Positions 9,115-34,349 of a stretch of DNA of 64,000 bases are shown piece after piece (the stretch's first letter is position 1; every line of letters starts with the position of its first letter). This stretch comes from Candidatus Omnitrophota bacterium (GTDB lineage: Bacteria > Omnitrophota > Gorgyraeia > JABMRN01 > RBG-13-46-9). A program made the translations under genes and the position numbers. The stretch covers positions 10,468 to 74,467 of the forward strand of contig JABMQJ010000012.1 of NCBI GenBank assembly GCA_013203315.1, in the 5' to 3' direction. The notes beneath the pieces are model-generated. The model was not told the origin of the DNA and made no database searches. It was given only the letters and a program-made list of their open reading frames with translations.

Positions 9115-10584
9115 ATGCCCTGGACAAAAACGCAACTCAACGAATCAATTAAGAAAATTATAGGCGATAGGCTGCTTATTATCGCATCCAACAGGGAACC
9201 CTATATACACACCTATAAAGAGGGTAAGGTTGAGTATATTCGGCCGATCGGCGGCGCTGTTACGGCATTGGATCCTGTTATGAGGGTTACCAAGGGAACG
9301 TGGGTAGCCTACGGAAGCGGAAATGCCGACAAAGACGTTGTAGATAAGAAGAACGAAGTAAAAGTCCCTCCCGAAAACCCCAAATATAAACTGAGAAGAA
9401 TATGGCTCTCTAAGGACGAGGAAAACGGTTACTATTATGGGTATTCCAACAAAGCAATGTGGCCGCTTTGCCACATGGCTTATACAAGGCCCGCTTTCGA
9501 CGATGTAGACTGGGCTTACTATAAAATCGTAAACCAGAAATTCGCCGACACGATTCTTGATATCGTCAAGGACCAAAAGGCCTTCGTGTGGATACAGGAT
9601 TATCATCTTTTGCTTTTGAGTAAACTTTTGAAGGAAAAAAACAAGAACCTGATTACCGCTCACTTTCTTCATATACCATGGCCCAATCCCGAAGCATTCC
9701 GCATATGCCCGCAAAAAAACGAGATACTTGAAGGGCTTCTGTCAAATAACCTTTTGGGATTTCACATAAGGTACCACTGCAGTAATTTTATGGAGACCGT
9801 TAAGCTGGAAATGGAGGCAAGGATTGACACCGAAAGGACATCCGTTGTTTACGGGGGGCACGAGACGCTTGTGAGGGCATTTCCTATAAGCGTGGATTTT
9901 GCGGAAATATCCGAGCAGGCCGAATCAAAAGAAGTTAAAAGCGCGATGAAAAAATTAAGGCACGAATTTTCGATAGAAAATGACGTTTTTATCATGGTCG
10001 GCTTAGACAGAATAGATTACACAAAAGGCATAGTTGAGAAGATTAGGGCAGTGGACCGTTTCTTCGAAAAATTTCCCGAATATAAAGGCAAGGTCACGTT
10101 CATTCAAAAGGGTGGCTTGAGCAGAATGCATATACCCGAATACAAAGAGCTGAACGATACCCTAAACAGGTTGGTAGAGGAAGTAAACTGGAAGCATTCG
10201 ACCGAAAAGTGGTACCCGATTTTACTTATCAGGCGCCACATGTCGAGAACAGGGATCATTGCTTTATATAAGATGGCAAACGCGTGCCTGGTGAGTCCCT
10301 TGCACGACGGAATGAATCTGGTCTGCAAAGAGTTTATAGCGACGAAAAACGATTTAAACGGCGTTTTAATCTTGAGCCAGTTTACCGGCGCAGCCAGGGA
10401 ACTGGACGATGCGATATTCGTAAATCCTTACGACAGGGAGAATTTCGCCATAATGCTGAAAGAAGCCGTAGAACTTCCCGATTCAAAAAAGAAAAAAAGG
10501 ATGAAACGCTTAAGAAGCGTCGTAAAGGAAAATAATATTTACAAATGGGCGGGAAAATTCTTAGAAGAATTAAAAAAGATTTAG
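9115..10584 (+). CDS. otsA: Trehalose-6-phosphate synthase (GT20)
   Basis: SNREP, GGAVTAL, WIQDYHL, FLHIPWP, DRIDYTKGI, HDGMNLVCKEF, LSQFTGAA motifs. Confidence 0.93.
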   Translation: MPWTKTQLNESIKKIIGDRLLIIASNREPYIHTYKEGKVEYIRPIGGAVTALDPVMRVTKGTWVAYGSGNADKDVVDKKNEVKVPPENPKYKLRRIWLSKDEENGYYYGYSNKAMWPLCHMAYTRPAFDDVDWAYYKIVNQKFADTILDIVKDQKAFVWIQDYHLLLLSKLLKEKNKNLITAHFLHIPWPNPEAFRICPQKNEILEGLLSNNLLGFHIRYHCSNFMETVKLEMEARIDTERTSVVYGGHETLVRAFPISVDFAEISEQAESKEVKSAMKKLRHEFSIENDVFIMVGLDRIDYTKGIVEKIRAVDRFFEKFPEYKGKVTFIQKGGLSRMHIPEYKELNDTLNRLVEEVNWKHSTEKWYPILLIRRHMSRTGIIALYKMANACLVSPLHDGMNLVCKEFIATKNDLNGVLILSQFTGAARELDDAIFVNPYDRENFAIMLKEAVELPDSKKKKRMKRLRSVVKENNIYKWAGKFLEELKKI

Positions 10585-11339
10585 CGGCACGAATTAAGGG
10601 CGCGAAAAGAGTAATATTTTTCCTGGATTACGACGGCACGTTAGTCCCCATCAAGAAGAGACCATCCCTCGCCAAAATTCATAAAAATACAAAAAACCTC
10701 CTTAAGAAACTGGCAAATACTCCTCCTGCAAAAATTTTCATCATAAGCGGCCGCTCATTAAAAGACGTAAAAAAGTTGGTCGGCATAAAATCCCTCTACT
10801 ATATAGGCAACCACGGCATGGAACTCGAGGGCCCACGCTTAAAATACGTAAACAAATCAGCAAATGCTTTAAAAACTTTTATGCAAAAAAGTTGCCAAAT
10901 GCTGAAAAAGAGGGTACACTTAAGAGGTGTTGTTTTAGAAGACAAGACTTACACCTTGAGTTTGCATTATAGACTGGTTGATCCGGGTAAGGTGAAGGCC
11001 CTAAAAAAAGTTTTTTTTGAAACATTAAAGCGCGCTAAAAGTGAAAAAAAGATAAAGGTTACCGAGGGCAAAAAAGTCTTAGAAGTCCGGCCGAATATAA
11101 AGTGGGATAAAGGAAAAATATTAAATCAGGTTTTAAGAGGCATGGGGCAAAAAGGCACCTTGGCTATTTGTATAGGCGATGATAAGACGGACGAAGATGC
11201 CTTTAGGGCGCTCGGGAAAAAGGGAGTAAGCATAGTCGTTTCGAGAAAGTCCAGAAAAACACGAGCGCAGTACAGGCTAAAATCTCCGAAGGAAGTTTTG
11301 AATTTATTAAAATGGTGCAGGCATGAACTGGTGGACTAA
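10545..11339 (+). CDS. otsB: Trehalose-6-phosphate phosphatase (HAD IIB)
   Basis: LDYDGTL motif I, ISGR, GNHGME, GKKVLEVRP, GDDKTDEDAF. The only in-frame start overlaps otsA by 40 nt. Confidence 0.92.
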   Translation: MGGKILRRIKKDLAARIKGAKRVIFFLDYDGTLVPIKKRPSLAKIHKNTKNLLKKLANTPPAKIFIISGRSLKDVKKLVGIKSLYYIGNHGMELEGPRLKYVNKSANALKTFMQKSCQMLKKRVHLRGVVLEDKTYTLSLHYRLVDPGKVKALKKVFFETLKRAKSEKKIKVTEGKKVLEVRPNIKWDKGKILNQVLRGMGQKGTLAICIGDDKTDEDAFRALGKKGVSIVVSRKSRKTRAQYRLKSPKEVLNLLKWCRHELVD

Positions 11340-12000
11340 AAAATCATCGAATCCTTTTCAATTTTACACGAGCGTTAAGCTAAGAGAGGTAACGGGGAGA
11401 AAAGCCCGTACATTGCGGGAGCTTGTGGAAATTATAAAAGAGGTTTCGGGCTCGGTCATATATTATCATACACACGTTTTTCTGCAGAGGCATCAGAACA
11501 TTTCACCGGAACCGCCGAACGATTTCGCGTTTTGGGTGTCATCTACTTTGGGGGAGAACAAATTAAGCGAGGAATTGGCAAGCATAGATATATGCGAGTT
11601 TAGCACTATTCGTGAGCTTAGAGAAAGAATAATAAAAACAATAGAAAATCATTTATTCGAAACAAAAGAGCCCCAGAGATATGCGTTGCAGGGAAAAGAA
11701 TTCGAGTTTATAAAAGCTCACAGCATTGTCATGCCTGCCGGTTTTACGGCGCATAACCTTAAAGAATTCGCGACAATCCTGGAGAAGGTTACCATTCATT
11801 CGATATATTTTCATATATTTGAGGCAAGATTAAGGCTGGAGAAAGCCGTCAATGACTTTGCATTCTGGATAGGTACTTCGGTAGGCTCTCCGGAGCTTGC
11901 AAAGATTATCGAATCGCTCGATCCTTATACGTTTACCGGAGAGGGTTTGAGGCGGGAATTGATAAAGATCATAAACGATTGGTGTACCACGCATAAATAA
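11323..12000 (+). CDS. DUF5752 / OrfY-like protein with an internal duplication, TreT-associated
   Basis: Two repeats of A.(T/N)L.E...I...V...(V/S)IY(Y/F)H...NDFAFW; sits directly upstream of a TreT-like glycosyltransferase. Confidence 0.7.
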   Translation: MNWWTKKSSNPFQFYTSVKLREVTGRKARTLRELVEIIKEVSGSVIYYHTHVFLQRHQNISPEPPNDFAFWVSSTLGENKLSEELASIDICEFSTIRELRERIIKTIENHLFETKEPQRYALQGKEFEFIKAHSIVMPAGFTAHNLKEFATILEKVTIHSIYFHIFEARLRLEKAVNDFAFWIGTSVGSPELAKIIESLDPYTFTGEGLRRELIKIINDWCTTHK

Positions 12001-12011
12001 TAGGGCCTAAA

Positions 12012-13229
12012 ATGAAAATAGCGGATTACGAGAAATTAGTAGGTAAGGACATAATTTACGAACTGACGCTTCTTGCCAAGAAACTTAAACGAAAGAAGAT
12101 ACAGTGCATAAATTCCACGCGTGTTGGCGGCGGCGTCGCGGAAATACTTTCCCGGCTCATTCCTCTTTTAAACGATTTGGGAATTGACGCCACATGGGAC
12201 GTGATAGCCGCGGACACCGATTATTTTAATGTAACCAAGGCTTTTCATAATGCCTTGCACGGCAGAAAAGTCGACATCAATCAAAGCATGTTTGATAAGT
12301 TTTTGAGCACCGGGAAAAAGATTTTAAAGGATACTAAAATATACGGCGATATCGTTTTTGTTCACGATCCGCAGCCAATGATGCTGGTAGATGCGAAGAG
12401 CAGGGGAAATAAATGGCTCTGGCGTTGCCATGTTGATGTCTCGCGGCCTTACCCGGAAGTGTGGGAATTTTTGCGCAAGTACATAGAAAAATATGACAGC
12501 TCGATATTTTCAAGCCCAAAGTTTGCCAGTAAGCTCGATATTCCGCAGTTTTTAGTGGCGCCTTCCATAGATCCTTTTAGCGAAAAAAATAGAGACCTCA
12601 CTAAAACCGAAATTGACACCGCCCTTGCAAGATACGGCATCGAAAGGGATAAGCCTATAATAACCCAGGTATCAAGATTTGATTATTTAAAGGATCCTGT
12701 CGGCGTGATAGATGCGTATAGGCTTGTTAAAAAATATATAGATTGCCAGCTTATCTTAGCCGGAAATGAAGCCGCCGATGACCCGGAAATGGACATGGTT
12801 TATAAGGATATTATGCAGCACAAGGGCGACGACCCGGACATACATGTGCTATTAATAAAACCGGAAAATAACGACCTTGACGTAAATGCCATCCAACGCG
12901 CAAGCGCTGTGGTTATCCAGAAATCAATAAGGGAAGGATTTGCCCTTACCGTAACAGAAGCTCTTTGGAAGGAAAGGCCTGTTGTCGCCTCAGCTGTCGG
13001 AGGAATTCCGCTACAGATAAGCCACGGACATAGCGGCCTTTTATGCCACACAGTCGGAGGAGCAGCCCTCCATATAAGGGAGCTTCTTCATAGCCCCGAG
13101 TACGCCAGACAGCTTGGTAAAAACGCCAAAGAGCATGTCCGGCGTAACTTCTTATCCACCCGCCACTTACGTGATTATATGATGCTCTTCCTCTATCTCT
13201 ACAACCCCCAGGACATTATTTACCTCTAA
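12012..13229 (+). CDS. treT: Trehalose synthase TreT-like glycosyltransferase (GT4)
   Basis: NSTRVGGGVAEIL, TKAFHNALHG, VHDPQP, WRCHVD, QVSRFDYLKDP, QKSIREGFALTVTEALWK. Confidence 0.85.
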   Translation: MKIADYEKLVGKDIIYELTLLAKKLKRKKIQCINSTRVGGGVAEILSRLIPLLNDLGIDATWDVIAADTDYFNVTKAFHNALHGRKVDINQSMFDKFLSTGKKILKDTKIYGDIVFVHDPQPMMLVDAKSRGNKWLWRCHVDVSRPYPEVWEFLRKYIEKYDSSIFSSPKFASKLDIPQFLVAPSIDPFSEKNRDLTKTEIDTALARYGIERDKPIITQVSRFDYLKDPVGVIDAYRLVKKYIDCQLILAGNEAADDPEMDMVYKDIMQHKGDDPDIHVLLIKPENNDLDVNAIQRASAVVIQKSIREGFALTVTEALWKERPVVASAVGGIPLQISHGHSGLLCHTVGGAALHIRELLHSPEYARQLGKNAKEHVRRNFLSTRHLRDYMMLFLYLYNPQDIIYL

Positions 13230-17159: not shown

Positions 17160-17892
17160 TATTTGCCTTACAATCGCCTATGACGGAACGCGTTACGGCG
17201 GTTGGCAAATCCAGAAAAACGCAAAAACAATTCAAGGTGAGATAGAAAAAGCTCTAAAAAAAATACTTAAAGAGAAAATAAAACTAACCGGAGCCGGCAG
17301 GACCGACTCCGGCGTACACGCCAGGGCGCAAGTCGCAAATTTTAAAACAAAAAAAATTTTTCCTCCCAAAAAGCTCACCGCTGCGCTAAACGCAAACCTC
17401 CCGACGGATATTTCAATAGTAAAGATAGAAAAAGTCCCTTCGGAATTTCATTCGCGTTTCGACGCAAAAAGTAAAATTTATCGGTATACTATTTTAAATA
17501 CACGCGCGGACGACCCGTTTCTAATTGCTTATTACTTTAAAATTCCCCGCAGGTTAGATGTTGCGCTGATGAGAAAAGAGGCAAGTGTTCTAGTGGGGAC
17601 GCACGACTTCAAATCTTTCCAGGCCAAAGCCAATCTGTCACCTGTAAAAAATACACGAAGAAAAATAAAAAAAATAACCATCAAAAGAGAAAAACAATTT
17701 ATTTATATTGATGTTGAAGGTACGGGATTCTTGCATAACATGGTTCGTAATATAGCGGGCACCCTTATTGAAGTAGGCAGGGGATACTTTCCGGAAGGCA
17801 GCATGAAAAAGATTCTGGCATCTCGCGACCGCCGGAAAGCCGGCCCCACGGCCCCTGCCAAAGCGCTTTTACTAGTACGGGTTAAATATTAG
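17152..17892 (+). CDS. truA: tRNA pseudouridine(38-40) synthase
   Basis: YDGTRYGGWQ, GAGRTDSGVHA, GFLHNMVR, AGPTAPA. Confidence 0.97.
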   Translation: MPNICLTIAYDGTRYGGWQIQKNAKTIQGEIEKALKKILKEKIKLTGAGRTDSGVHARAQVANFKTKKIFPPKKLTAALNANLPTDISIVKIEKVPSEFHSRFDAKSKIYRYTILNTRADDPFLIAYYFKIPRRLDVALMRKEASVLVGTHDFKSFQAKANLSPVKNTRRKIKKITIKREKQFIYIDVEGTGFLHNMVRNIAGTLIEVGRGYFPEGSMKKILASRDRRKAGPTAPAKALLLVRVKY

Positions 17893-17901
17893 CCCAATAT
17901 T

Positions 17902-17930
17902 TTGACTATAATAGATCCGTTATGTATACT
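17902..17930 (+). promoter_or_regulatory. Sigma70-type promoter
   Basis: TTGACT-N17-TATACT upstream of the kinase at 17961. Confidence 0.7.
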
Positions 17931-17960
17931 TAAGACATAAGTACGAATAGGGCAATGTAA

Positions 17961-18971
17961 ATGAAAAAGAATAAAACACGAAAAAGAAAACCGCGTGAAG
18001 ATCAAAATAGCTATAAAGTAGTTATTTCTGATTTAGGCATGAGCCCGTTTCGCATTATGCGCGCCTCTTTTGTGTTAATGGGCATACTTCCGCTTCTTAT
18101 CATCTTCTACATAATCGTAGGACGCAAATTTCTTTTTGATATTTTTCTGGGGACCAACGGCCTGATAGCGTTTTTTGCTGTCATGATCTCGCTCATAGGA
18201 TTTGTGTATGCTTACACTCTTATTGCGAATATGATAAGAAAACTAGTCGTGTATTCTGCCGAACGCAAGCAAATAGACGAGGAGAAAACCGAACTACTTC
18301 TTGCGGTAAGCCATGATTTAAAAACACCTTTAACCATACTTAAAACGGGAATGCGTAATCTCACCGACGGTATCGGTGGGGCTCTAAGCAAGGTTCACGT
18401 CGGAGTGGCCGATCACTGCCTTCGCGCCGTGGACAGGATAAACCGTTTTATAGATGAACTTTTGGACTTCTCCAAGGTGGGTTTCATGAGAACGAATATA
18501 AAGCGCGACCTGATAGACCTCGGCGAAATGGTAAAGAATGAGGTAGATGCGATGTCTGATCTTGCCAGAGAGAACGGGCAGGATCTTCGGGTTAAGATTG
18601 AGGCCAAAGACGCAAAAGTATGGGCTGACGAGAAAAAAATGTCAAGAGCGGTCATGAATCTTCTTTCCAACGCCATAAAATATACCCCGAAGGGCGGCAA
18701 GATTAACGCGACGGTATCCACTGATGAAAATACCACGAGATTCACGCTAATAAATACCGGTCCCGGAATTCAGCCAAACGAATTAGATAAAATATTTAAA
18801 AAATACGAAAGGCTTGACAGGCATTCCGATGTAGAAGGCACGGGGCTTGGGCTTTCTATCGTAAAAGAAATAATGGATTTACACAAAGGCCGCCTAACCG
18901 TAAAAAGCGAACCCGGCAAAGAGACAGAATTTGATCTAATTCTACCCAGAGACTTACGAGAACGAGTATAG
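17961..18971 (+). CDS. Membrane sensor histidine kinase (2 TM, almost no periplasmic domain, HisKA-HATPase)
   Basis: H-box SHDLKTPL, N-box NLLSNAIKY, G-boxes NTGPGI and GTGLGL; two hydrophobic segments joined by a short loop. Confidence 0.9.
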   Translation: MKKNKTRKRKPREDQNSYKVVISDLGMSPFRIMRASFVLMGILPLLIIFYIIVGRKFLFDIFLGTNGLIAFFAVMISLIGFVYAYTLIANMIRKLVVYSAERKQIDEEKTELLLAVSHDLKTPLTILKTGMRNLTDGIGGALSKVHVGVADHCLRAVDRINRFIDELLDFSKVGFMRTNIKRDLIDLGEMVKNEVDAMSDLARENGQDLRVKIEAKDAKVWADEKKMSRAVMNLLSNAIKYTPKGGKINATVSTDENTTRFTLINTGPGIQPNELDKIFKKYERLDRHSDVEGTGLGLSIVKEIMDLHKGRLTVKSEPGKETEFDLILPRDLRERV

Positions 18972-18995
18972 CGATAGCAGAAAGGCTATCTCCAT

Positions 18996-20006
18996 ATGGA
19001 AAGGGTAAGATACCAGATAGACCCGCATAATAGGCTCGTTATCCGGAAAGCTGCCAGAAAAACACCCCTTCCGTATTTTAGAAAAGTCCTGACAGGCCGT
19101 TTTAAAATCGATAACGATAATGAGCTCACCTACCACGTAAAAACTCCCGTCCCGCATGGCAAAAATATTCCTCATCAGGTAAAGCTAAGAGGGCAATGGT
19201 CAGTAACAGATGATCATAATCTCCGTCTTACTTTTGACAAATGGGGAAGGGAGACTTTCGGCGATCGGCTTACCATAAAAGGCGATATCGTAGACACGAG
19301 TAAAAATTCATTCCTCTTTGCAATCACTACAAAAACAAAAGAAAATACCCGCTCAACATATATACTTAGACTTCAAGGGGTATGGCAGGCCGATAAAAAT
19401 AACCGTCTTACATTTAGGATAACAAAGGAGGATGGTAGGCATGATATTCTGGTATTAGACGGTATCTGGGAAATAAATAAAAACTATCAGATTATTTATA
19501 AATACGAAAAGGCGCATCTTGTAAGAAAACGAAAAAAACTTCACACCCTTATTTTTAAGGGCTATTGGGATATCTCCGGAAAAAAGCGTATATCATATAT
19601 AATTGACGCAAAATCCGGTTCCGTGTTTAACTTTAAAACCGGCCTTGACATATTCAGGGCCGGTTATGTAAAATATGAACTAGGTGTAAAGCTCTCATAC
19701 AGCCCTAAACCGGTTAAGCGCAAGATTACTCTTTCCGGTGCCTGGAAGATTAAGAGAAATCTAGGGCTTGTATTCGAAATGGCATACAAAAATCAAAAAC
19801 TTCACGCCATAATTTTCGGCGCCGAAGCAAGATTGACGGCAAGAGATATGGTATCTTTCAGGCTTAGAAATGAATTAAATAAAGACATGGGCGTAACCTT
19901 AAAGCTGTCGCATAAAATATTAAAAGGGGACGGCGAGGCTTTTTTAAAATTACTTAGGTCGAAAAAAGAATGCGCCGTATTAGCAGGTTCGGGGTGGAAA
20001 TGGTAA
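18996..20006 (+). CDS. Hypothetical basic all-beta protein with ~30-aa hairpin repeats and a C-terminal Trp
   Basis: 336-aa ORF in operon; recurring (L/F)xGxWxI(D/N)xxxxLx(F/Y) units; ends AGSGWKW; no signal peptide (in-frame TAG at 18975-18977). Confidence 0.8.
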   Translation: MERVRYQIDPHNRLVIRKAARKTPLPYFRKVLTGRFKIDNDNELTYHVKTPVPHGKNIPHQVKLRGQWSVTDDHNLRLTFDKWGRETFGDRLTIKGDIVDTSKNSFLFAITTKTKENTRSTYILRLQGVWQADKNNRLTFRITKEDGRHDILVLDGIWEINKNYQIIYKYEKAHLVRKRKKLHTLIFKGYWDISGKKRISYIIDAKSGSVFNFKTGLDIFRAGYVKYELGVKLSYSPKPVKRKITLSGAWKIKRNLGLVFEMAYKNQKLHAIIFGAEARLTARDMVSFRLRNELNKDMGVTLKLSHKILKGDGEAFLKLLRSKKECAVLAGSGWKW

Positions 20007-20740
20007 CTAAGCTTGCCGCAGCGGTAATCGTCGTTATGCTAACCTACGCGCCAAGTATAATTGCCGATACAATTATACTTAAAAATGGCGAAGAAATAGT
20101 AGGAAACGTGGTTAGTGAATCCGGCGAAGGTGTAGTAGTAAGCAAACAGGGCGGAAGCTTTGTATATTCAATTTCAAAAAATAGAATAAAAAACATAAGA
20201 AAATCAACCCCGGGGGAAGAAGCCTGGCAGGAGAAAAAAGAGGGGCGTTTCTACAAAACGGATAAGAAAAATATTTCCGAACAAAAAAGCAAGTGGAAAG
20301 AATACCGTTTATCGGAATACAAAAAAGAAGTGATTGCAGCAGATCGTGCCCAGGGCAGAATGCGCGTTCATTTTACGAATAATAAATTTGGCGTTGTGGA
20401 TGTGGTTCTGAATGATAAAATAAGGGCCTCGCTTTTCGTTGACACGGGTGCTAGTTTTGTATCGATTTCCGAGAAAACAGCCGGAGACCTAAAGATTGAC
20501 TTAGGGTCGCTTCCGAAGATCAAGCTTATACTCGCAAACGGAAGCGAGGTAGAGGGGTATTCTACTACGCTCGATTCAGTCGAAGTCGGCAATGCCCGCA
20601 TCGAAAATGTTAAAATCGCTATACACAAGATGTCTGACTCCGGCAAGGTAGACGGCCTCCTCGGCATGTCCTTCCTGAAGCACTTCCACGTAAAACTTGA
20701 TTCACAAGAGAACTGTCTCATCCTCGAAAAATACCAGTAA
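20000..20740 (+). CDS. Exported retropepsin-like (clan AA) aspartic protease
   Basis: Signal-peptide-like N-terminus from ATG 20000, DTIILKNG..I.G module, catalytic FVDTGAS, ANG flap, GLLGMSFL. Overlaps the upstream stop codon. Confidence 0.85.
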   Translation: MVTKLAAAVIVVMLTYAPSIIADTIILKNGEEIVGNVVSESGEGVVVSKQGGSFVYSISKNRIKNIRKSTPGEEAWQEKKEGRFYKTDKKNISEQKSKWKEYRLSEYKKEVIAADRAQGRMRVHFTNNKFGVVDVVLNDKIRASLFVDTGASFVSISEKTAGDLKIDLGSLPKIKLILANGSEVEGYSTTLDSVEVGNARIENVKIAIHKMSDSGKVDGLLGMSFLKHFHVKLDSQENCLILEKYQ

Positions 20741-20769
20741 TTCGAACACTCCTTTTTCTGCGCACAAAT

Positions 20770-20798
20770 TTGACAAAAGTTAGTTCCTAATGTATACT
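20770..20798 (+). promoter_or_regulatory. Sigma70-type promoter for the cheR/pilus operon
   Basis: TTGACA-N17-TATACT. Confidence 0.78.
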
Positions 20799-20884
20799 TA
20801 TTGAGTTCAGGATATTTGTTGAGTTTTAGATATAAAGGACACCACAATATTAACTCATAATATTAATATCATAATACTAAGTAA

Positions 20885-22399
20885 ATGCCTGCAACAGTAG
20901 ATATAAGAAACCAATTTAAGACTTTTGTAGCCAACCGTGGCGGCCTATATTTTAAGGACCACGACCTAAAGAACCTCGAAAGCGCTATCTCCGCACGAAT
21001 GAAATCCCGCGGAATGCATTCATTTCCCGGATACTATGCATACCTTACAACCGCCGAAGAGAAAGAAGATGAGTTCAGAGAACTCTTAAATCTTCTAACG
21101 ATAAACCACACATACTTCTTCAGGAACGAACCACAATTCAAGGCTCTGAGGGAAAAGGTTTTGCCCAATGTGATTGAGAAAAAACGACAAGAAGCAAGCG
21201 CATCAGGCGAGGAAAAACCCGCGTTACGCATATGGAGCGCCGGTTGTGCGACAGGACAGGAGCCATATTCAATTGCAATGATAGTGCGTGATCTTATAGA
21301 AGACATAGATGATTGGGACGTACAAATACTCGCCACTGACGCGTCCGAAAATGCATTACAGAATGCACGAAAAGGCACATATAGCCAGAACTCGGTAAAG
21401 CATGTTGATGAAACGCGCCTCGCGAGATATTTTACAAAAGAAGGGAATACCGAGCGCGATACAAAATACCGGATACAGGAAAACATTAGAAGAATGATTA
21501 ATTTTGCCTTTTTCAATCTCATGGAGGAAAGTTTCCCTACGGGTTTTGATATCATATTTTGCCGCAACGTTGTCATATATTTCGAATTTGAAACAACTGT
21601 AAAGGTTATGAATAAGCTTTATTCCGGCCTTTTAGACGGCGGTTACATGTTCATAGGCTATTCCGAAACGCTTCAATTCATGCAGGACAGGCTTCAGATG
21701 ATAAGTTGGGAAGACGCGATATATTATCACAAGGCCAAAGGAAAAGCACCTGTTTATACGGAATTCGCCGAACCCCTGCCTGCTAAAGAGGAGATAGATC
21801 TAGATAAGGTCCTGGAAGAAATCTCAAAGGCAGAAGCCACCGCGAACTTAGAGGCCGAGACAAAAAAAGCGCCGCCTACTCAAAAAATAGAGAATATGCT
21901 CATTCAGATTATTAAAGCCATGCACCTAAAGCAATACGACAAGGCCCTCTCACTTATTGAAGAAGCAAGTTCAGTGGACGATAAAGTGGTCGACCCTCAT
22001 TATCTGGCGGCCGAGATTTTTATAAACCAGGGAAAAAGAGGCGAGGCAAAGACAAGGCTTTCTACCGCGCTAAAACTCGATTCGCTTTTCGCGCCGGCGC
22101 ATTATCTTTATGGTTGTATATACGTGGAGGAAAGCGATCTTGATAACGCGAAAAAAAGTCTGAAAAAAGCCTTATTCATAGATAAAAATTTCTTATTGGC
22201 GCATTTTTATCTTGCTCAGGTTTTCAAAACCGAGGGACGCACAAAGGATGCGATCAGGGAATACAGAAATAGCCTGAAACTCTTGTCCGGGGCTGCGCCC
22301 GGAGATATTATAGCCTATAGCGGCGGGTTTAATGCTGCTACATTCATGAGTGTTTGCAGGGATAATCTGGAAAGACTAAAAATAGAATACGGAGATTAA
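20885..22399 (+). CDS. cheR: CheR-type methyltransferase with C-terminal TPR repeats (WspC/FrzF-like architecture)
   Basis: TYFFRN, RIWSAGCATGQEPYSIAM, ILATD, FDIIFCRNVVIYF; then TPRs (ALKLDSLFAPAHYLYG, ALFIDKNFLLAHFYLA). Confidence 0.88.
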   Translation: MPATVDIRNQFKTFVANRGGLYFKDHDLKNLESAISARMKSRGMHSFPGYYAYLTTAEEKEDEFRELLNLLTINHTYFFRNEPQFKALREKVLPNVIEKKRQEASASGEEKPALRIWSAGCATGQEPYSIAMIVRDLIEDIDDWDVQILATDASENALQNARKGTYSQNSVKHVDETRLARYFTKEGNTERDTKYRIQENIRRMINFAFFNLMEESFPTGFDIIFCRNVVIYFEFETTVKVMNKLYSGLLDGGYMFIGYSETLQFMQDRLQMISWEDAIYYHKAKGKAPVYTEFAEPLPAKEEIDLDKVLEEISKAEATANLEAETKKAPPTQKIENMLIQIIKAMHLKQYDKALSLIEEASSVDDKVVDPHYLAAEIFINQGKRGEAKTRLSTALKLDSLFAPAHYLYGCIYVEESDLDNAKKSLKKALFIDKNFLLAHFYLAQVFKTEGRTKDAIREYRNSLKLLSGAAPGDIIAYSGGFNAATFMSVCRDNLERLKIEYGD

Positions 22400-22401
22400 T
22401 T

Positions 22402-22581
22402 ATGAAACTAACAGTATTTACTCTGAAAGATAAGGAATACGGAGTTGACATGATGGTAACGGCTTCAGCCGACGCAGTGGACGCAGTAAAGGCAAGAAAA
22501 ATGGGCGCGGACGATTATTACGCAAAGACGAGCGACTTATCCATTTTAGTCAAAGCTATAAAAAAAATAACTGAAATATAA
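22402..22581 (+). pseudogene. 59-aa chimeric remnant: CheW N-terminus fused to a receiver-domain C-terminus
   Basis: Manual translation MKLTVFTLKDKEYGVD-MMVTASADAVDAVKARKMGADDYYAKTSDLSILVKAIKKITEI; GGAG RBS at 22391; absent from the supplied ORF track. Confidence 0.72.
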
Positions 22582-25844: not shown

Positions 25845-25871
25845 AGCACCCAATGCTTAAAAGGAGGATGA

Positions 25872-26246
25872 GTGGCAAAGATGAAAATACTACTTGTTGA
25901 CGATGAGCCAATGTTTATCGAAATAATGAAAACAAGGCTGGAGGCCGACGGCTGCGAGGTAATTACCGCTTCCGACGGAAAACAGGCGCTTGACAGGATA
26001 GCGCAAGACAAACCTGATGCGGTTTTGCTGGATATTCTTATGCCCGTATTGGACGGGATGTCTGCGCTTGAAATGATAAGAAAGAAGGATAAAGAATTAC
26101 CCGTATACATGCTGACTGCTTTCTCGACCGAAGATAGAATTAAAGAGGCAAAAAGGGCCGGCGCTTCCGGGTTCCTTGTTAAAGACGGTGAGTTGAAAGA
26201 AGAAATTGGCGGTATAGTAGATCAATTAAAGAAAAATAAATCCTAA
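25872..26246 (+). CDS. Single-domain response regulator (receiver 1 of 4)
   Basis: ILLVDDE, LLDILMP, MLTA, conserved Lys (VKDG). Confidence 0.92.
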   Translation: MAKMKILLVDDEPMFIEIMKTRLEADGCEVITASDGKQALDRIAQDKPDAVLLDILMPVLDGMSALEMIRKKDKELPVYMLTAFSTEDRIKEAKRAGASGFLVKDGELKEEIGGIVDQLKKNKS

Positions 26247-26264
26247 CATGAAAAAGGAGGGTGC

Positions 26265-26648
26265 ATGAATAAGAAGAAAATCCTGATAATAGACGATGAA
26301 GTGGACCTGGTTGATTTAGTCAAGATGAGGCTTGAGGTGGCGAACTATTATGTGTTACCGCTTTATACGAGTACGCGCAGCCTCGAGATAGCGAAAAGAG
26401 AAAAACCCGACCTGGTTCTTCTGGATGTAATGATGCCGGATAAAAACGGGTATGAGGTCTGCAAGGAGCTAAAAGCCGACGAGGCAACGCGCCATATCCC
26501 CGTAATTATATTTACCGCAAAACCTGAACAGAAAGAACGCATTAAAAAAGACGCTGAATTGGCCGGAGCCGATGACTACATCTTGAAACCTTTTGACCCG
26601 GCGGATTTAACTAAAAAGATCGAAAAACTCCTAAAAAAGGGGGTGTAA
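26265..26648 (+). CDS. Single-domain response regulator (receiver 2 of 4)
   Basis: ILIIDDE, LLDVMMP, FTA, KPF. Confidence 0.92.
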   Translation: MNKKKILIIDDEVDLVDLVKMRLEVANYYVLPLYTSTRSLEIAKREKPDLVLLDVMMPDKNGYEVCKELKADEATRHIPVIIFTAKPEQKERIKKDAELAGADDYILKPFDPADLTKKIEKLLKKGV

Positions 26649-26649
26649 A

Positions 26650-27027
26650 ATGAGTAAGAAAAGAATATTAGTCATTGATGATGAGTTGGAATTAGTGGCC
26701 ATGCTAAAAATCAGGCTGGAAGCAAATAACTACGAGGTTGTTACAGCAGGTGACGGCGAAGAGGGTATGGAAAAGGCTAAAACCGAAAAGCCGGACTTAA
26801 TCATTCTGGACATCATGATGCCTAAAAAAGACGGCTACACATTTATTAAGGAAATGAGAACCGAGCAAGGTATAAAAAGTACGCCTGTTATCATACTTAC
26901 CGCTAAGGCGAAAATGCAGGATTTGTTTGCAATCGAAGGCGCGAAAGATTACATTGTAAAGCCTTTCGAAGCTACGGAACTCCTGGAGAAGATAGCAAGA
27001 TATTTTAAGAATACAGGAAGCGAGTAA
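26650..27027 (+). CDS. Single-domain response regulator (receiver 3 of 4)
   Basis: ILVIDDE, ILDIMMP, LTA, KPF. Confidence 0.92.
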   Translation: MSKKRILVIDDELELVAMLKIRLEANNYEVVTAGDGEEGMEKAKTEKPDLIILDIMMPKKDGYTFIKEMRTEQGIKSTPVIILTAKAKMQDLFAIEGAKDYIVKPFEATELLEKIARYFKNTGSE

Positions 27028-27044
27028 AGAACCGGAGGGTGAAA

Positions 27045-27419
27045 ATGCCTGATAAAAAGAGGATCTTAATAGTCGACGACGAAATGCAATTGGTGGAAAT
27101 GGTAAAGATACGCCTCGAGGCTAACGGCTACGAAACTTTAGCAGCTTATGACGGCCAGACAGGGCTGAATATGGCAAAAAAAGAAAAACCCGATTTAATC
27201 ATATTGGATTTGATGATGCCCAAAATGGACGGATATAAAGTTTGTGCCCTTTTGAAAAGAGATTCCAGATACTCAAAAATTCCCGTACTGATATTTACGG
27301 CAAAGGCGCAGGAAGAAGACGCAAAAATGAGCGAAGAAGCCGGTGCTGACGCATACCTTGTCAAACCCTTTGAACCGGAGGCACTACTAGGCAAAATAAG
27401 CGGATTATTGAAGGAGTGA
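27045..27419 (+). CDS. Single-domain response regulator (receiver 4 of 4)
   Basis: ILIVDDE, ILDLMMP, FTA, KPF. ATG 27045 preferred from GGAGGG spacing (ORF track uses GTG 27039). Confidence 0.92.
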   Translation: MPDKKRILIVDDEMQLVEMVKIRLEANGYETLAAYDGQTGLNMAKKEKPDLIILDLMMPKMDGYKVCALLKRDSRYSKIPVLIFTAKAQEEDAKMSEEAGADAYLVKPFEPEALLGKISGLLKE

Positions 27420-27421
27420 AC

Positions 27422-29116
27422 ATGGCAAAAAAGCAGAAAAAGTCCCTCGGTGAGAGCCTCGTGGACGAAGGTATCATAACTCAGGATCAGCTGAAACAGG
27501 CGCAGGCAGAAGAGAAGCGCGTGGGTCAGCGTTTACGTAAAGTGCTTGTTAAGATGGGGTTGATTGACGAAGGGGATCTCGTATCTTTTTTAAGCGACAA
27601 GTTGGGTGTGCCCAGGATAGAGCTTGGTAATTATTTGATTGACGCGAAGATAATTGATTTGGTGCCCGAGGCGCTGGCCAGAAAACACGAACTTATTCCT
27701 GTATTTAAAATTGGGGATCGCCTTACGTGCGCGATGCTTGATCCATGGAACATATTTGCGCTTGATGAGGTAAGAATGAAAACGCATTTAACGGTTGAGC
27801 CTGCTGTGGCGACAGAAGGCGAGATAAAGAAGGCCCTTAATCAATATTACAGCGCAAGGGGCAACATGGAAGACCTTATAAAAACTTTAGACCAAAAAGA
27901 CCTGGGATTAGGAGAGGGTAAAGAAATCGACGCTAAAAAGCTACAGGGAATAGTGGAGGAGCCCATAGTAATAAGGCTTGTTAACATGATTATTTCAAAG
28001 GCCGTGCAGGAAAGGGCCAGTGACATTCACATTGAACCGGAAGAGAGCGTTCTTAAAACGCGATACAGGGTAGACGGCATGCTGCATGAAGCGCCGTCTC
28101 CGCCCAAGCACCTTCAATCTGCGGTGATATCGAGAATTAAAATAATGGCGGATCTCGATATTGCTGAAAGAAGGAAACCGCAGGATGGGCGTTTCAGCAT
28201 TAAAATGGAAGGTAAACAGATAGATGTTCGCGTATCCTGTATCCCCACCATATACGGAGAAAACGTTGTTTTGCGGCTTCTGGATACTTCGAGCACGCTT
28301 ATTAGCTTGAAAGACATGGGATTCTCTAAAGAAGTGCTGGAAAAATACGAGAAGCTTGTCACGAGGCCGCATGGAATAATTCTTGTTACCGGGCCTACCG
28401 GAAGCGGAAAAACTACGACACTCTACGCCTCGCTCGATAAAATAAACACGGTGGAGAAAAATATCATAACAATTGAGGACCCGGTTGAATACAAGCTCGA
28501 AGGGATAAGGCAGACCCAGGTAAACCCCAAGGTTGACCTTACGTTTGCCAACGGACTCCGCTCTATACTGCGGCAAGATCCGGACATAATAATGGTAGGT
28601 GAAATGAGGGACTTCGAGACAGCTGAGATTGCAATTCAGGCGGCGTTAACGGGCCACCTTGTTTTCTCAACGCTTCACACCAATGACGCCCCGGGCGCGG
28701 TGACACGAATGATCGATATGCGAGTCGAGACATTTCTTGTATCGTCTTCGGTAATTGGCGTGTTGGCCCAGAGGCTTGTAAGAACAATATGCCTTGCGTG
28801 CAAGGAAAAATATCAGCCGACAAAAGAAGAGTTGAAAGATATAGGGCTCACGGGTGATGAGAAAATAGATTTCTATAGAGGCAAGGGTTGCGATAAATGC
28901 ATGAAAACAGGCTACAAGGGTAGAATCGGTATTTTTGAACTTATGATGGTGGATGACGAGATAAAGAACTTAATCATTGCGAAAACAACAGCCGAGGAGA
29001 TTAGGAAAAATGCCCTTTCAAAAGGAATGATATCATTGCAGGACGACGGAATCGAGAAAATAAAACAAGGACGTACAACAGTAGAGGAAGTTCTGCGCGT
29101 AACCCAGGAGGAATAA
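27422..29116 (+). CDS. pilB: Type IV pilus / T2SS assembly ATPase (PilB/GspE) with an N-terminal MshEN-like domain
   Basis: ASDIHIEP, PQDGRF, GPTGSGKTT, TIEDPVE, LRQDPD, STLHTN, CxxC...CxxC. ATG 27422 follows AAGGAG. Confidence 0.92.
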   Translation: MAKKQKKSLGESLVDEGIITQDQLKQAQAEEKRVGQRLRKVLVKMGLIDEGDLVSFLSDKLGVPRIELGNYLIDAKIIDLVPEALARKHELIPVFKIGDRLTCAMLDPWNIFALDEVRMKTHLTVEPAVATEGEIKKALNQYYSARGNMEDLIKTLDQKDLGLGEGKEIDAKKLQGIVEEPIVIRLVNMIISKAVQERASDIHIEPEESVLKTRYRVDGMLHEAPSPPKHLQSAVISRIKIMADLDIAERRKPQDGRFSIKMEGKQIDVRVSCIPTIYGENVVLRLLDTSSTLISLKDMGFSKEVLEKYEKLVTRPHGIILVTGPTGSGKTTTLYASLDKINTVEKNIITIEDPVEYKLEGIRQTQVNPKVDLTFANGLRSILRQDPDIIMVGEMRDFETAEIAIQAALTGHLVFSTLHTNDAPGAVTRMIDMRVETFLVSSSVIGVLAQRLVRTICLACKEKYQPTKEELKDIGLTGDEKIDFYRGKGCDKCMKTGYKGRIGIFELMMVDDEIKNLIIAKTTAEEIRKNALSKGMISLQDDGIEKIKQGRTTVEEVLRVTQEE

Positions 29117-30336
29117 TGCCTATATATACGTACAAAGCCCGAGACACGATGGGCAAATCAGTGCGAGGCAAGATGGAGGTTGATACCAAAGCCGAACTTA
29201 TCGATAGGCTGCACAAAATGGGCTATATGACGACGCAGGTGACAGAGGCCCGTTCCACCGGTGACCTTAACATCGAAACCCTACTCGACAAGATAAGACC
29301 CGTAGGCACTGAGCACATGCTCATGTTTTATGTTCAGCTTTCAAATATGATCAGCGCCGGTATACCTATTTTAACCTGTTTAGATACGCTCAGTAATCAG
29401 ATTGAAAATAAGAAATTGAAAGACGCTGTTGGTAGTATTGCCAGAAGCGTCGGCGGAGGGGAAAGCCTTTCAAAGGCATTCAGGGACCAGCCCCGGGTAT
29501 TCCCGCAACTCTTTTCCAATATGGTAAAAGCCGGAGAAGTCAGCGGAAAACTGGATACAGTATCGGTAAAATTTGCCGAATATTTCGAACACCAGGAAGA
29601 CCTGCGCCAAAAAATAAGGAGCGCGCTTTTCTACCCCATGATACTTTTGGTGGCAGGCGTAGCCGTTATGCTTTTTATAGTAACCTTTATCATACCGCTG
29701 TTTGCCCAGATTTTTGCAAAAAGCGGCATAGCCTTACCGGCCCCGACACTCCTGCTTTTAAAAATTGGCCTTTCAATTAAGCATTTCTGGTATTTAGGCA
29801 TTCTGGCTTTCGTCGGATGTTTTTTAGTGGTTAAATTTTACATAAATACTGAAATTGGACGGCTTAATTTCGATAAACTAAAATTGAAAATACCCATAAT
29901 CGGATCGTTGCATCGCAGGGCAGCGCTCGCCAGCTTTACAAGGACCCTGGGGACCCTTACAGATAGCGGGGTTCCTATTCTCGAATCCCTGGATATCACA
30001 AAGTCAGTAATGGGAAACGAGGTGCTGTCCCGTGTTATTGCCAACGCGCGTAGCGCGGTTGAAAAAGGGGAGAAATTATCCGGGCCGCTTAAGATAAGCG
30101 AAGAGTTTCCGCCTGATGCTGTCCAGATGATTTCAGTAGGAGAGGAAACAGGTAATCTGGATACAATGCTGAATAAGGTCGCGGATTTTTATGACATGTC
30201 AGTGGGGTACTCCATAAAAAAACTGACAACCGTGATTGAGCCCCTGTTTTTAGTTATCATGGGTAGCCTTATAGGATTTATCATGATCTCCATACTTTTG
30301 CCGATGTTTGACATGATAAAGGTTATTAAGCATTAG
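29116..30336 (+). CDS. pilC: Type IV pilus / T2SS platform protein (PilC/GspF)
   Basis: MPIYTYKARD, AGEVSGKLD, SALFYP, VGEETGNLD, IEP; two GspF repeats. Confidence 0.93.
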   Translation: MPIYTYKARDTMGKSVRGKMEVDTKAELIDRLHKMGYMTTQVTEARSTGDLNIETLLDKIRPVGTEHMLMFYVQLSNMISAGIPILTCLDTLSNQIENKKLKDAVGSIARSVGGGESLSKAFRDQPRVFPQLFSNMVKAGEVSGKLDTVSVKFAEYFEHQEDLRQKIRSALFYPMILLVAGVAVMLFIVTFIIPLFAQIFAKSGIALPAPTLLLLKIGLSIKHFWYLGILAFVGCFLVVKFYINTEIGRLNFDKLKLKIPIIGSLHRRAALASFTRTLGTLTDSGVPILESLDITKSVMGNEVLSRVIANARSAVEKGEKLSGPLKISEEFPPDAVQMISVGEETGNLDTMLNKVADFYDMSVGYSIKKLTTVIEPLFLVIMGSLIGFIMISILLPMFDMIKVIKH

Positions 30337-30345
30337 AAAGAGGGG

Positions 30346-30564
30346 GTGGCGAAAATGGAAGTATTTCTAGGTATTGCTTCAATATTTTTTCTTATTTTTG
30401 GCGCGATGCTTTTGCTTTCACCGAATATCGTTGAACGAATTTCCAAAGCGACAAATAAGGTGCTTTTTAATCTGGATGACAAAATACAGTCTACGAGAAG
30501 ACCCCTGGGAATTCTGCTATTGGCAATATCGATTTTTTTATGGTATACTGCGCTACATAAGTAA
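30346..30564 (+). CDS. Small two-TM membrane protein
   Basis: 72-aa ORF with two hydrophobic segments and a purine-rich RBS, filling the pilC-pilin gap. Confidence 0.7.
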   Translation: MAKMEVFLGIASIFFLIFGAMLLLSPNIVERISKATNKVLFNLDDKIQSTRRPLGILLLAISIFLWYTALHK

Positions 30565-30579
30565 AAAAGGAGGCCAGGG

Positions 30580-31038
30580 ATGATGAAGAAGAAAGGTTTT
30601 ACACTGATTGAGCTTTTAATTGTGATAGCGGTTATTTCTATCCTGATTGGTATCGCGCTTCCGCGTTTCAGGGGCATGCAGGAAGAGGGTTTGGTTGCGC
30701 AGGCCAAGGGAGAGTTAAGGACGCTCCAAACAGCCATAGAAAGTTACTATATCCACAATAGCAGCGCCTATCCGACAGATAGTGCTACCTGGCAATCAGA
30801 TACAGATAGCCTTACCACTGCTACCCCGCTAATAGTAGGTACGGCTTTAATTGATCCGTTTTCCAGTGCAGGGGCGCAATATCAGCTGGTGTATGATACA
30901 AATACGGCTTATTATGCTATGTATTCAGTGGGTCCGGGCGGCACCGGGAGCGTTACCGCAGTTAGCACTGCCGGCGGTGTTACTGATACACCCAACTGCA
31001 TTTATGTTTCGAACGGAGAAAGAGACACGACGCCATAA
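30580..31038 (+). CDS. Major type IV pilin / GspG-like pseudopilin
   Basis: Class III signal KKKG|FTLIELLIVIAVISIL; strong AGGAGG RBS. Confidence 0.9.
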   Translation: MMKKKGFTLIELLIVIAVISILIGIALPRFRGMQEEGLVAQAKGELRTLQTAIESYYIHNSSAYPTDSATWQSDTDSLTTATPLIVGTALIDPFSSAGAQYQLVYDTNTAYYAMYSVGPGGTGSVTAVSTAGGVTDTPNCIYVSNGERDTTP

Positions 31039-31054
31039 TTTAAAGAGGGTACTT

Positions 31055-31411
31055 GTGAAAAATAATGGCTTTACCTTGCTGGAAATCCTTATGGCTATCG
31101 TACTTTTTACGGGAAGCGTTAGCCTTATTGTGATGCTTTTCGCGAACGCTTTGGTTGCCAGCACTGATGCTGAAAATACGACAATCGCCATGAACTTAGC
31201 GCAAGGAAAAATGGAAGAGGTACGAAACCTTTCCTTCGCCAGCATTGCAGATGAAGCCAAGGCCGCCGTAACCGGTTTTACCGGATTTCAGAGAGAGGTT
31301 GCGGTGACAACGTCCGAAACAGACCTAAAGCAGGTAACGGTTACAACATACTGGACATATAAAGGCGGTGAAGTAGAAGTGCCGCTCGTAACCTATATTA
31401 GCAAAAATTAA
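31055..31411 (+). CDS. Minor pilin (PilV/GspI-like)
   Basis: GTG 31055 after GAGGG; KNNG|FTLLEIL, AMNLAQGKMEE, VTVTTYW. Confidence 0.85.
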   Translation: MKNNGFTLLEILMAIVLFTGSVSLIVMLFANALVASTDAENTTIAMNLAQGKMEEVRNLSFASIADEAKAAVTGFTGFQREVAVTTSETDLKQVTVTTYWTYKGGEVEVPLVTYISKN

Positions 31412-31412
31412 A

Positions 31413-31931
31413 ATGAAAAAGGGAATCACGTTAATCGAGCTTATTATTAGCGTAACTCTTTTTTTAATACTTGGTAGCGTTGTTCTTTGGGTTTTTGTAG
31501 TGGGTTTAAGATCTTGGGATTCGGGTCTGAATAGGGCTAACATACGCCAGAGTGTCAATGTAGCGCTTGAGAGGATGACGCGGGAGCTCGGCCAGGCAAG
31601 CGAGGTTACTCAAGCCAAAGCCGGTAACATTACGTTTCAGGCAGATTTAGACGAGAATGGCACCGTGGAAACCATAACGTTTGATGTTACAAATGCCGAT
31701 AACCTGGAGCGCACCGAGAGTGGCCGAGACATTCTTATGGTTAGCAATGTGCAAGACTTTACACTGGGTTATTATCTGGAATCGGGCAATGACACTCTTT
31801 TAAGCTCTGTTAATTCTCCTGCTAACCGGGATACTATACGGGTTGTTGTTATATCAATTACCGTAAGCGAAGGTGACGAAACGCTTACATTTAGCACAAG
31901 CGCTTATACACGAAATCAGTCAAATGATTAA
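31413..31931 (+). CDS. Minor pilin (PilW/GspJ-like)
   Basis: MKKG|ITLIELII, ALERMTREL. Confidence 0.85.
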   Translation: MKKGITLIELIISVTLFLILGSVVLWVFVVGLRSWDSGLNRANIRQSVNVALERMTRELGQASEVTQAKAGNITFQADLDENGTVETITFDVTNADNLERTESGRDILMVSNVQDFTLGYYLESGNDTLLSSVNSPANRDTIRVVVISITVSEGDETLTFSTSAYTRNQSND

Positions 31932-32724: not shown

Positions 32725-32725
32725 C

Positions 32726-34330: not shown

Positions 34331-34349
34331 AGTAGCAACAAGGGGAGAC

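Follow-up and report, generated by a model that had tools for sequence, protein, structure and literature searches.

A leaderless family of beta-hairpin-repeat proteins in Omnitrophota that ends in an outer-membrane-type C-terminal strand

How can a bacterial protein be built, and end, like an outer-membrane beta-barrel and yet carry no export leader? The question is raised by one gene at positions 18996 to 20006 of the stretch analysed here, 64,000 nucleotides of contig JABMQJ010000012.1 from a Candidatus Omnitrophota bacterium (the window, below). Its product is a chain of beta-hairpin repeats that follows the strand grammar of outer-membrane proteins (OMPs), and the contradiction between its tail and its absent leader is real and unexplained. 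A preliminary description made from the letters alone had proposed an undescribed large beta-barrel or open beta-meander, possibly a pore, a secreted effector or a binding groove, with a loose likeness to VDAC. The following features fix the gene and its start:

18996 to 20006, + strand: coding sequence of the beta-hairpin-repeat protein, 336 amino acids, stop codon TAA at 20004-20006 (open reading frame list)
18975 to 18977, + strand: in-frame TAG that closes the frame 5' of the start, 7 codons (21 nucleotides) before the ATG at 18996 (read directly)
18980 to 18985, + strand: likely ribosome-binding site, the purine-rich GAAAGG, 10 nucleotides before the ATG

The preliminary description had read this locus correctly: the frame stands in the list of open reading frames (ORFs) on the + strand with 336 codons for amino acids, the nine peptide units that it quoted and the ending AGSGWKW are all present in the translation, and the stop that it placed at 18975 is the TAG. 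Full-length relatives at 55-65% identity back the coding status of the frame, which is also the sole match of the family hidden Markov model (HMM) in the 64-kb window (E 2.5e-136; one copy). The histidine-kinase gene upstream ends at 18971, leaving a gap of 24 nucleotides; because of this end and of the in-frame TAG, the N-terminus is fixed, without space for a leader. A promoter and terminator scan of 17800-21000 gave sites no commoner than in shuffled sequence. The richness in Lys and Arg also holds, with 69 such residues (20.5%) against 32 Asp and Glu and a crude isoelectric point of 10.65. Since the Kyte-Doolittle mean over 19 residues peaks at 0.66, the protein has no transmembrane helix, and it carries no recognisable catalytic motif.

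The protein belongs to a large family. Of 1810 candidates from a word-index search, 505 are relatives at E<=1e-3; those listed, 120 in number, have 323-359 residues and 55-65% identity, every named one is called 'hypothetical', and 10 of the 11 listed records that name an organism are from Omnitrophota or Omnitrophica, the other from Syntrophaceae. When 1.84 billion representatives of 50%-identity clusters were searched with a profile, 492 matched at E<=1e-3, 415 at E<=1e-10 and 267 at E<=1e-30, most of them 310-375 residues long and spanning the whole profile. Two alignments were made, A1 with 35 sequences at 55-65% identity and A2 with 134 sequences at 25-65% identity to the query. A genome scan with A1, one genome per species, gave 209 relatives, of which 80 loci from 72 assemblies were kept. 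By their titles 63 of these loci are from Omnitrophota or Omnitrophica, one is from Candidatus Aadella gelida, an Omnitrophota genus, and 16 are from metagenome-assembled genomes (MAGs) labelled 'uncultured Planctomycetia/Planctomycetales'. The survey of taxonomic distribution that had been suggested for this protein is thus dominated by Omnitrophota titles, plus the Planctomycetia-labelled MAGs. A distant Arg-rich subfamily (query P0195) is from Omnitrophota in all five records that name an organism. Two to five family loci occur in 5 of the 72 assemblies, and one assembly has five. The latter is an Omnitrophota MAG (L029, L034, L037, L038 and L039, contigs JAHITY01...), in which a 41-residue fragment with 54% identity to the query is found some 800 nucleotides upstream of a full copy (L037:3422-3544). 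Longer or fused forms of 656-2000 residues were not found, which is weak evidence.

The family was rightly called undescribed, and the known soluble family that might have explained it did not appear in searches of Pfam, NCBIfam and PDB. The best Pfam match of the window protein, DUF7926, reaches 20.6 bits where the cut-off is 33.5, and none of the 134 diverse members of A2 reaches a cut-off, the commonest matches below it being DUF7840 (10 members), DUF7926 (5), DUF5004 (3) and Lipocalin_4 (2). For the window protein NCBIfam yielded nothing relevant, and a sequence search of PDB had no match below E 0.098. No description of the family was found in the literature on Omnitrophota proteins or beta-barrels, or on DUF7926, DUF7840 or DUF5004. 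As judged from these searches, the repeat protein is a member of a large unnamed family seen, with the Syntrophaceae record and the Planctomycetia-labelled MAGs as exceptions, only in Omnitrophota records.

Both termini are family traits. We scored signal peptides by a hydropathy proxy, a mean of at least 2.0 over any 10-residue window in the first 50 residues, in 352 members of 300-380 residues; none has a signal-peptide-like stretch. A version limited to the first 45 residues found none in the 134 members of A2, and the neighbouring secreted protease scores 3.2 in it. The missing signal peptide, which the preliminary description had deduced from the upstream stop, hence appears to be family-wide and not a truncation of the window copy: the homologs with a normal leader that would have marked this copy as truncated did not turn up. 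The repeat protein is accordingly predicted to be made without any Sec- or Tat-type signal. Its other end is marked by a strand:

19980 to 20003, + strand: C-terminal beta-signal-like strand LAGSGWKW, residues 329-336 (family logo)

Over the 352 members the logo reads Gly at position -5 (97%), Val or Ala at -4, Gly, Gln or Ala at -3, Val, Trp, Phe or Ile at -2, Arg at -1 (65%) and Phe or Trp as the last residue (98%). A terminal aromatic residue (Phe, Trp or Tyr) is kept in 346 of the 352, the form in which the zeta residue is polar is seen in 54 of the 134, and the consensus of the close subfamily is AGAGWRW. The published beta-signal is given as zeta-x-G-x-x-[aromatic/hydrophobic]-x-[aromatic/hydrophobic] (PMC10945584) and its prototype as LGLGYRF (PMC10629564). 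The C-terminal aromatic residue pointed out earlier thus fits the outer-membrane beta-signal better than had been guessed.

Between the termini lie about ten tandem units of about 30 residues, arranged as five double units of about 60 residues, S1 to S5:

19008 to 19037, + strand: N-terminal hairpin motif RYQIDPHNRL, residues 5-14 (alignments A1 and A2)
19077 to 19262, + strand: double unit S1, residues 28-89, with G34-x-F36 and G66-x-W68; G66 is invariant (hhalign against S2-S4, 96.0-98.5%)
19263 to 19442, + strand: double unit S2, residues 90-149, with G96 and G128-x-W130...D133-x-x-N136-R137-L138-x-F140 (hhalign, alignment, entropy)
19443 to 19628, + strand: double unit S3, residues 150-211, with G156-x-W158 and G189-x-W191 (hhalign, alignment, entropy)
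19629 to 19799, + strand: double unit S4, residues 212-268, with G218 and G248-x-W250 (hhalign, alignment, entropy)
19800 to 20003, + strand: divergent last unit S5, residues 269-336 (hhalign E 3e-4 to 5e-3; low model confidence, given below)

The periodicity of about 30 residues noticed by eye exceeds chance by two routes. In BLOSUM autocorrelation, lags 28 and 60 stand out (z 3.3 each, compared with 300 shuffles), and pairwise hhalign of the sub-alignments of S1-S4 gives 95.7-98.5% probability in all six pairs (E 1.5e-15 to 8.4e-9); S5 matches S1-S4 more weakly. At the level of 30-residue units, 6 of 11 (U1, U2, U4, U5, U6 and U8) cross-match at 92-97%. We conclude that the roughly ten units arose by duplication as five double units. 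Each unit consists of a strand hydrophobic-x-G-x-[W/F/I], a turn rich in Asp and Asn, in its best copy W-x-A-D-x-x-N-R-L-x-F, and a return strand. In the N-terminal motif N12 and L14 are nearly invariant family-wide (column entropies 0.26 and 0.23 bits), and a RYQIDPHNRL-type motif falls inside the first 30 residues in 313 of the 352 members. The D-x-x-N-R-L turn recalls the YD motif, and an RHS/YD repeat was considered and rejected, as no RHS/YD family matched the 134 members at E<=0.01.

How these units are arranged in space was examined by structure prediction and by covariation. AlphaFold2 with A1 gave an unusable model (predicted local distance difference test, pLDDT, 38.5), which was replaced by the model made with A2 (mean pLDDT 83.8, predicted template-modelling score 0.81, 188 residues at 90 or above). 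The latter is all-beta, with 29 strand segments and no helix of four or more residues, and counts about 23 strands once segments split just before a conserved Gly, at bulges, are joined. A non-beta model, named beforehand as the outcome that would speak against the proposal, was thus not obtained. Mean-field covariation over 397 sequences (effective number 310) recovered about 11 of the about 22 sequential hairpins at z>=4.5, and strands of adjacent units pair, residues 170-175 with 178-183 (z 5.7) and 287-292 with 296-301 (z 5.8). Averaged over nine units, the Gly strand (two residues to either side of the Gly) pairs with the residues 10 to 14 after the Gly at z 8.4 and the return strand pairs with the next unit at z 5.4; units two or more apart reach at most z 4.2. 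The repeat units therefore make up a single antiparallel meander of beta-strands that runs up and down without a break.

Of all single covariation pairs H11-W83 (nucleotides 19026-19028 and 19242-19244; score 2.03, background standard deviation 0.24) is the strongest; it was not used for topology. One of its residues lies in the N-terminal turn DPHNRL and the other in KWGRETFGD, the loop that connects strands 76-80 and 91-102. The N-terminal hairpin may thus pack against this loop, although the pair stands at control-level signal. A long-range anti-diagonal of residues 91-96 with 258-263 (z 5.7) was likewise left out of the topology, since it lies at the level of the parallel-diagonal control (to z 5.5).

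The strands have two unlike faces, and the alternation of hydrophobic and polar residues seen in the window copy holds across the family. Face 1 of the 29 modelled segments has a mean hydropathy of +1.68, 9% charged residues and a column entropy of 1.65 bits; face 2 has -1.08, 36% and 2.76 bits (Mann-Whitney p = 3e-14). Almost every conserved residue (Gly, Trp, Tyr, Phe or Leu) lies on the hydrophobic face, whose invariants are G66, G128, G189 and G248, W68, W130, W158, W191 and W250, Y168 and Y201, and F140 and F260. In six of nine units a conserved aromatic residue stands 12 positions after the Gly (Y46, F108, F140, Y168, Y201 and F260), which is the cross-strand position indicated by the covariation couplings. 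Net charge ranges from -4 to +51 over the 134 members, with a median of +24, and R137 is the only basic residue conserved across the wide alignment; the positive charge is therefore general and not a fixed site, and its variation by position fits a solvent-exposed surface.

Is the meander a closed membrane barrel? Strands running in one direction sum to 137 residues in the A2 model and the return strands to 77, six of the latter being 5-7 residues long (44-48, 76-80, 138-143, 198-204, 257-263 and 285-291). Together with turns of 4-5 residues, these totals suggest a steeply staggered sheet, unlike ordinary membrane barrels. Foldseek against PDB gave 27 matches at E<=1e-3, headed by seven-bladed propeller lectins (6flu_A, E 6e-5), designed propellers, WD40 proteins and a variant of OspA. 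All 50 PDB matches listed have template-modelling (TM) scores of 0.09-0.16 and root-mean-square deviations (rmsd) of 17-27 A, and none of the 50 is a membrane barrel (OMP, VDAC or usher). Against BFVD there were six matches at E<=1e-3, with TM at most 0.16. The Foldseek rmsd was rejected as an estimate of shape, as it gives only a lower bound on the radius of gyration. Locally, the predicted geometry is that of a tight antiparallel meander, and the modelled global arrangement is without a relative in PDB and BFVD. Covariation between the N-terminal and C-terminal strands reaches at best z 3.7, under the parallel-diagonal control of 4.6-5.5, in a test whose power is about one half. Of the earlier proposal of a large beta-barrel or open beta-meander, the all-beta continuous meander stands, and the low TM scores and the closing covariation give the closed barrel no support.

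Other known folds were compared as well. The repeat protein shares local four-strand meander geometry with PHL/PLL lectins (E 6e-5 to 8.5e-4) and with an OspA mutant (E 2.2e-3), and differs from propellers, WD40 proteins and OspA in global fold. A beta-propeller was rejected: its best E of 6e-5 comes with TM 0.13 and rmsd 25 A, and strand D of a double unit pairs with strand A of the next. To our knowledge the last strand of a propeller blade never pairs with the first strand of the next blade, and separate blades are disfavoured because this is what the last strand of a double unit does here. With lipocalins and calycins the protein shares the G-x-W strand motif, and one family cluster is automatically named 'Lipocalin-like'; unlike lipocalins, which have the motif once in an 8-stranded barrel of about 170 residues, it has it nine times in 336 residues. 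A lipocalin-like domain was also rejected, Lipocalin_4 matching 2 of the 134 members (E 0.0036 or worse) and DUF5640 scoring 11.4 bits against a cut-off of 28.5.

The likeness to VDAC suspected in the last hairpins did not hold up. Like the VDAC/Tom40 proteins of Porin_3 and chloroplast OEP24, the repeat protein is leaderless and basic, and its turns are short on both sides, with about 15 residues per strand plus turn as in VDAC and OEP24. It differs from them in matching neither Porin_3 nor OEP24 in Pfam (Porin_3 is unmatched at E<=1 by the window protein and at E<=0.01 by the 134 members), in having about 23 modelled strands and no helix where VDAC has 19 strands and an N-terminal helix, and in coming from a bacterial phylum.

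What, then, is the protein? We tentatively favour a leaderless, non-enzymatic beta-meander, soluble or peripheral, because the family lacks a leader throughout, has a basic variable face and an invariant aromatic face, and gives a model that is not a barrel. The conserved aromatic face would be buried in the native state, against itself, a partner or lipid, and the variable charged face would be exposed to solvent. The protein would then be a soluble or peripherally bound scaffold or binding module and not a classical porin of the Sec and BAM (beta-barrel assembly machinery) route. Its terminal G-x-x-hydrophobic-R-[W/F] strand might act by beta-augmentation, either capping or closing the edge of its own sheet or docking on a partner's edge strand, in the way that OMP substrates attach to strand 1 of BamA.

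Several points weigh against this preference. The pattern G..[hydrophobic].[aromatic] at the very end is found in 298 of the 352 members, and the tail is, by its sequence, a canonical beta-signal of the kind carried by BAM substrates, which runs to the final residue; no need for one is known in a scaffold confined to the cytoplasm. The density of uncharged alternating stripes of at least five residues, a crude count, is 3.57 per 100 residues in the window protein (family median 3.29), which equals that of two OMPs of the phylum (2.98 and 3.32) and exceeds that of six soluble proteins (1.96-2.47). By profile, the family matches PDB only at a hairpin from the barrel of ZnuD, a TonB-dependent receptor (E 0.021). 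More weakly, the nearest named language-model clusters in the ESM Atlas are OEP24, Porin_3 and Porin_4, a lead only (score 0.86, 138-150 shared features against a reliability mark of 170). The confidence of the model drops over the last 65 or so residues (pLDDT 49-71), the 'buried aromatic face' and the 'not a barrel' are suggested by the list of structure matches, and neighbouring genes are not conserved. The canonical, strictly terminal signal and the OMP-like strand grammar are left unexplained by a soluble or peripheral meander.

The tail, the stripes and the ZnuD hairpin would fit a rival reading, an integral membrane beta-barrel, porin-like with a cationic lumen, that would reach the organism's own outer membrane by a Sec- and Tat-independent route and be inserted by BAM through its beta-signal. 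Like OMP barrels, the family consists of beta-hairpins in an up-and-down meander of amphipathic strands, with hydrophobic stripes as dense as in the two OMPs of the phylum. The Gly-aromatic cross-strand pairs in 6 of 9 units resemble the 'mortise-tenon' pair, reported as conserved in 13 of 15 OMP families (PMC5542473). The C-terminal logo, G-x-x-hydrophobic-R-[F/W] with the aromatic last, fits the consensus and is close to the prototype cited above, and two real OMPs beside relatives also end on an aromatic residue, a TonB-dependent receptor (..GAKYKF, L050) and a Gcw_chp protein (..KTAVTF, L046). Several paralogs per genome are often seen for porins too. Both of these OMPs, however, have ordinary signal peptides, are acidic and contain 6.0% and 10.0% Lys and Arg, far from the 20.5% of the window protein and the strongly positive median charge of its family. 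Significant sequence matches to OMP families are missing in Pfam and NCBIfam (Alginate_exp matches 1 of the 134 members, E 0.008), and the family HMM gave nothing below E 0.76 in 652 neighbour ORFs. The confident model retrieves no barrel among the 50 PDB matches listed, the closing covariation falls below the noise, and alternate strands of 5-7 residues are probably too short to span a bilayer. We know of no Sec-independent route for bacterial OMPs. Taken together, a membrane barrel seems unlikely to us.

A lack of leader together with a perfect beta-signal is also what an effector would show, released or injected so as to engage the BAM of other bacteria, either posing as a substrate and becoming a pore in the outer membrane of the prey, or blocking strand 1 of BamA. 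Such a protein would suit a phylum suspected of predatory or parasitic life, its variable surface and net charge and its several paralogs per genome are as an arms race would give, and its cationic surface might suit anionic cell surfaces. A partial precedent is offered by the Llp lectin-like bacteriocins, which, according to bioRxiv 10.64898/2026.09.25.754295, are all-beta and inhibit BamA by beta-signal mimicry with a C-terminal peptide whose aromatic-x-aromatic dyad pairs with BamA strand 1. In that account, Llps have lectin domains and hypervariable tails, almost never the Gly of the signal and never the terminal aromatic of the dyad. The repeat family resembles them in its all-beta build and its beta-signal-type peptide; unlike them as so described, it has no lectin family in Pfam and no hypervariable tail. 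Its conserved Gly (97%) and terminal aromatic (98%) are substrate-like and not mimic-like, no lectin or receptor-binding domain was detected by Pfam in the window protein and the 134 members, and genes for immunity, lysis or secretion are not conserved neighbours. Predatory life is a suspicion for the phylum and an assumption for the source organism. We regard an effector as quite unlikely.

A cytoplasmic carrier or store of lipid or another hydrophobic ligand might also account for the contrast between the long conserved hydrophobic face and the variable charged one; its aromatic face would line a groove or flattened cavity (of beta-taco, LolA or lipocalin type), and its cationic outside would rest on anionic membranes. 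The repeated G-x-W, the 'Lipocalin-like' cluster name and the sub-threshold matches to Lipocalin_4, DUF5004 and DUF5640 go in this direction. The Atlas's own low-confidence model (pLDDT 0.45), again only a lead, finds ushers and LptD at TM 0.30-0.39, and the LptD-type sheets are nearest over residues 1-211 (TM 0.36-0.39). Genes for PLD (6), PEBP (4) and receiver or PP-binding proteins (8) lie near relatives in the 80 loci, and a ketoacyl synthase is next downstream in 2 of 64 scanned. The 50 PDB matches listed, however, include no structure of LptA, LolA, TamB, a lipocalin or a lipid-transfer protein, the lipocalin-type matches are all below cut-off and confined to at most 3 of the 134 members, the neighbours are heterogeneous without a conserved class, and the strictly terminal aromatic residue finds no explanation, so that a lipid carrier appears very unlikely. 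Of the functions first proposed for the protein, the pore, the effector and the groove are thus each kept as a reading, and none is singled out.

In the window the repeat gene sits between a small histidine kinase and an aspartic protease gene:

20000 to 20740, + strand (ORF from 19970): clan AA aspartic protease with a signal peptide, 3' of the repeat gene (ORF list, Pfam, NCBIfam)

The protease gene probably begins with the ATG at 20000, so that it overlaps the end of the repeat gene in the letters ATGGTAA, an arrangement that points to translational coupling. Its N-terminal domain resembles the Leptospira LA_0442/LA_0875 family (NF047433, 36 bits, below the cut-off of 43). Of these neighbours in the window, the kinases recur in 4 of the 80 loci of relatives and the aspartic protease in 1 (L044), so that the protease is no part of a context conserved in the family. 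The commonest neighbour is a papain-family Peptidase_C1 gene, within 4 kb in 15 of the 80 loci and downstream in 12; it directly follows the relative on the same strand in 7 of 64 cases scanned (L003, L008, L012, L013, L022, L029 and L058). It encodes about 260 residues, and the start called in L003 gives no obvious signal peptide. The genes directly beside relatives, 64 downstream and 61 upstream, are otherwise a mixed set without a conserved class, and the genomic context therefore gives no function. Staphostatins are leaderless beta-barrels encoded beside staphopains, and by this analogy the repeat protein could be a cytoplasmic partner, inhibitor or chaperone of the adjoining protease, with the overlap in the window and the Peptidase_C1 neighbours in its favour, but the idea is far-fetched: in 64 of the 80 loci no protease of this sort is close by, the proteases are of two distinct classes, a staphostatin has a third of the size of the repeat protein, and up to five loci occur per genome in unrelated contexts.

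Two of the readings above share a consequence. That the family is a true BAM client without a signal peptide, either by Sec-independent export of a barrel or as a ready-made porin or blocker delivered to the BAM of others, has a modest chance of being true; if so, it would be a new use of the beta-barrel assembly pathway. Functional OMP-like features would break the textbook pairing of Sec signal with beta-signal in bacterial barrels and give a way to study how beta-signals are recognised, or abused, beyond their usual route. Should these features prove purely structural, the family would be a natural case of the ancestral OMP hairpin grammar in a non-membrane all-beta fold without a PDB relative, which bears on the evolution of membrane barrels from hairpin repeats. 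In either case a family of 492 clusters at 50% identity, in one phylum, often multicopy and without a Pfam or NCBIfam model, could serve as a marker of Omnitrophota.

The window around the gene is a housekeeping stretch, with genes of glycolysis, of trehalose, leucine, arginine and lysine metabolism and a cluster of type IV pilus or type II secretion type. The trehalose cluster (9115-13229) combines the OtsA/OtsB route with a TreT-type synthase, with a DUF5752 gene between. Downstream of the repeat gene, a 59-residue ORF at 22402-22581, between a CheR-TPR gene and a Cache-HAMP-PAS kinase-GGDEF gene, has no Pfam match at 1e-5; its end resembles the C-terminal part of a receiver domain (..GADDYY.K..), and it may be the remnant of a response regulator. 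From the kinase-GGDEF gene to the pilus ATPase gene, about 1.6 kb (25845-27415) hold no ORF of at least 150 residues. The pilus or secretion cluster itself (27416-34877) encodes an ATPase, a platform protein, an N-methyl pseudopilin, a PilM-PilN fusion and PilO, and within it, at 31873-32724, a 283-residue protein with an F5/8 type C (discoidin) carbohydrate-binding domain.

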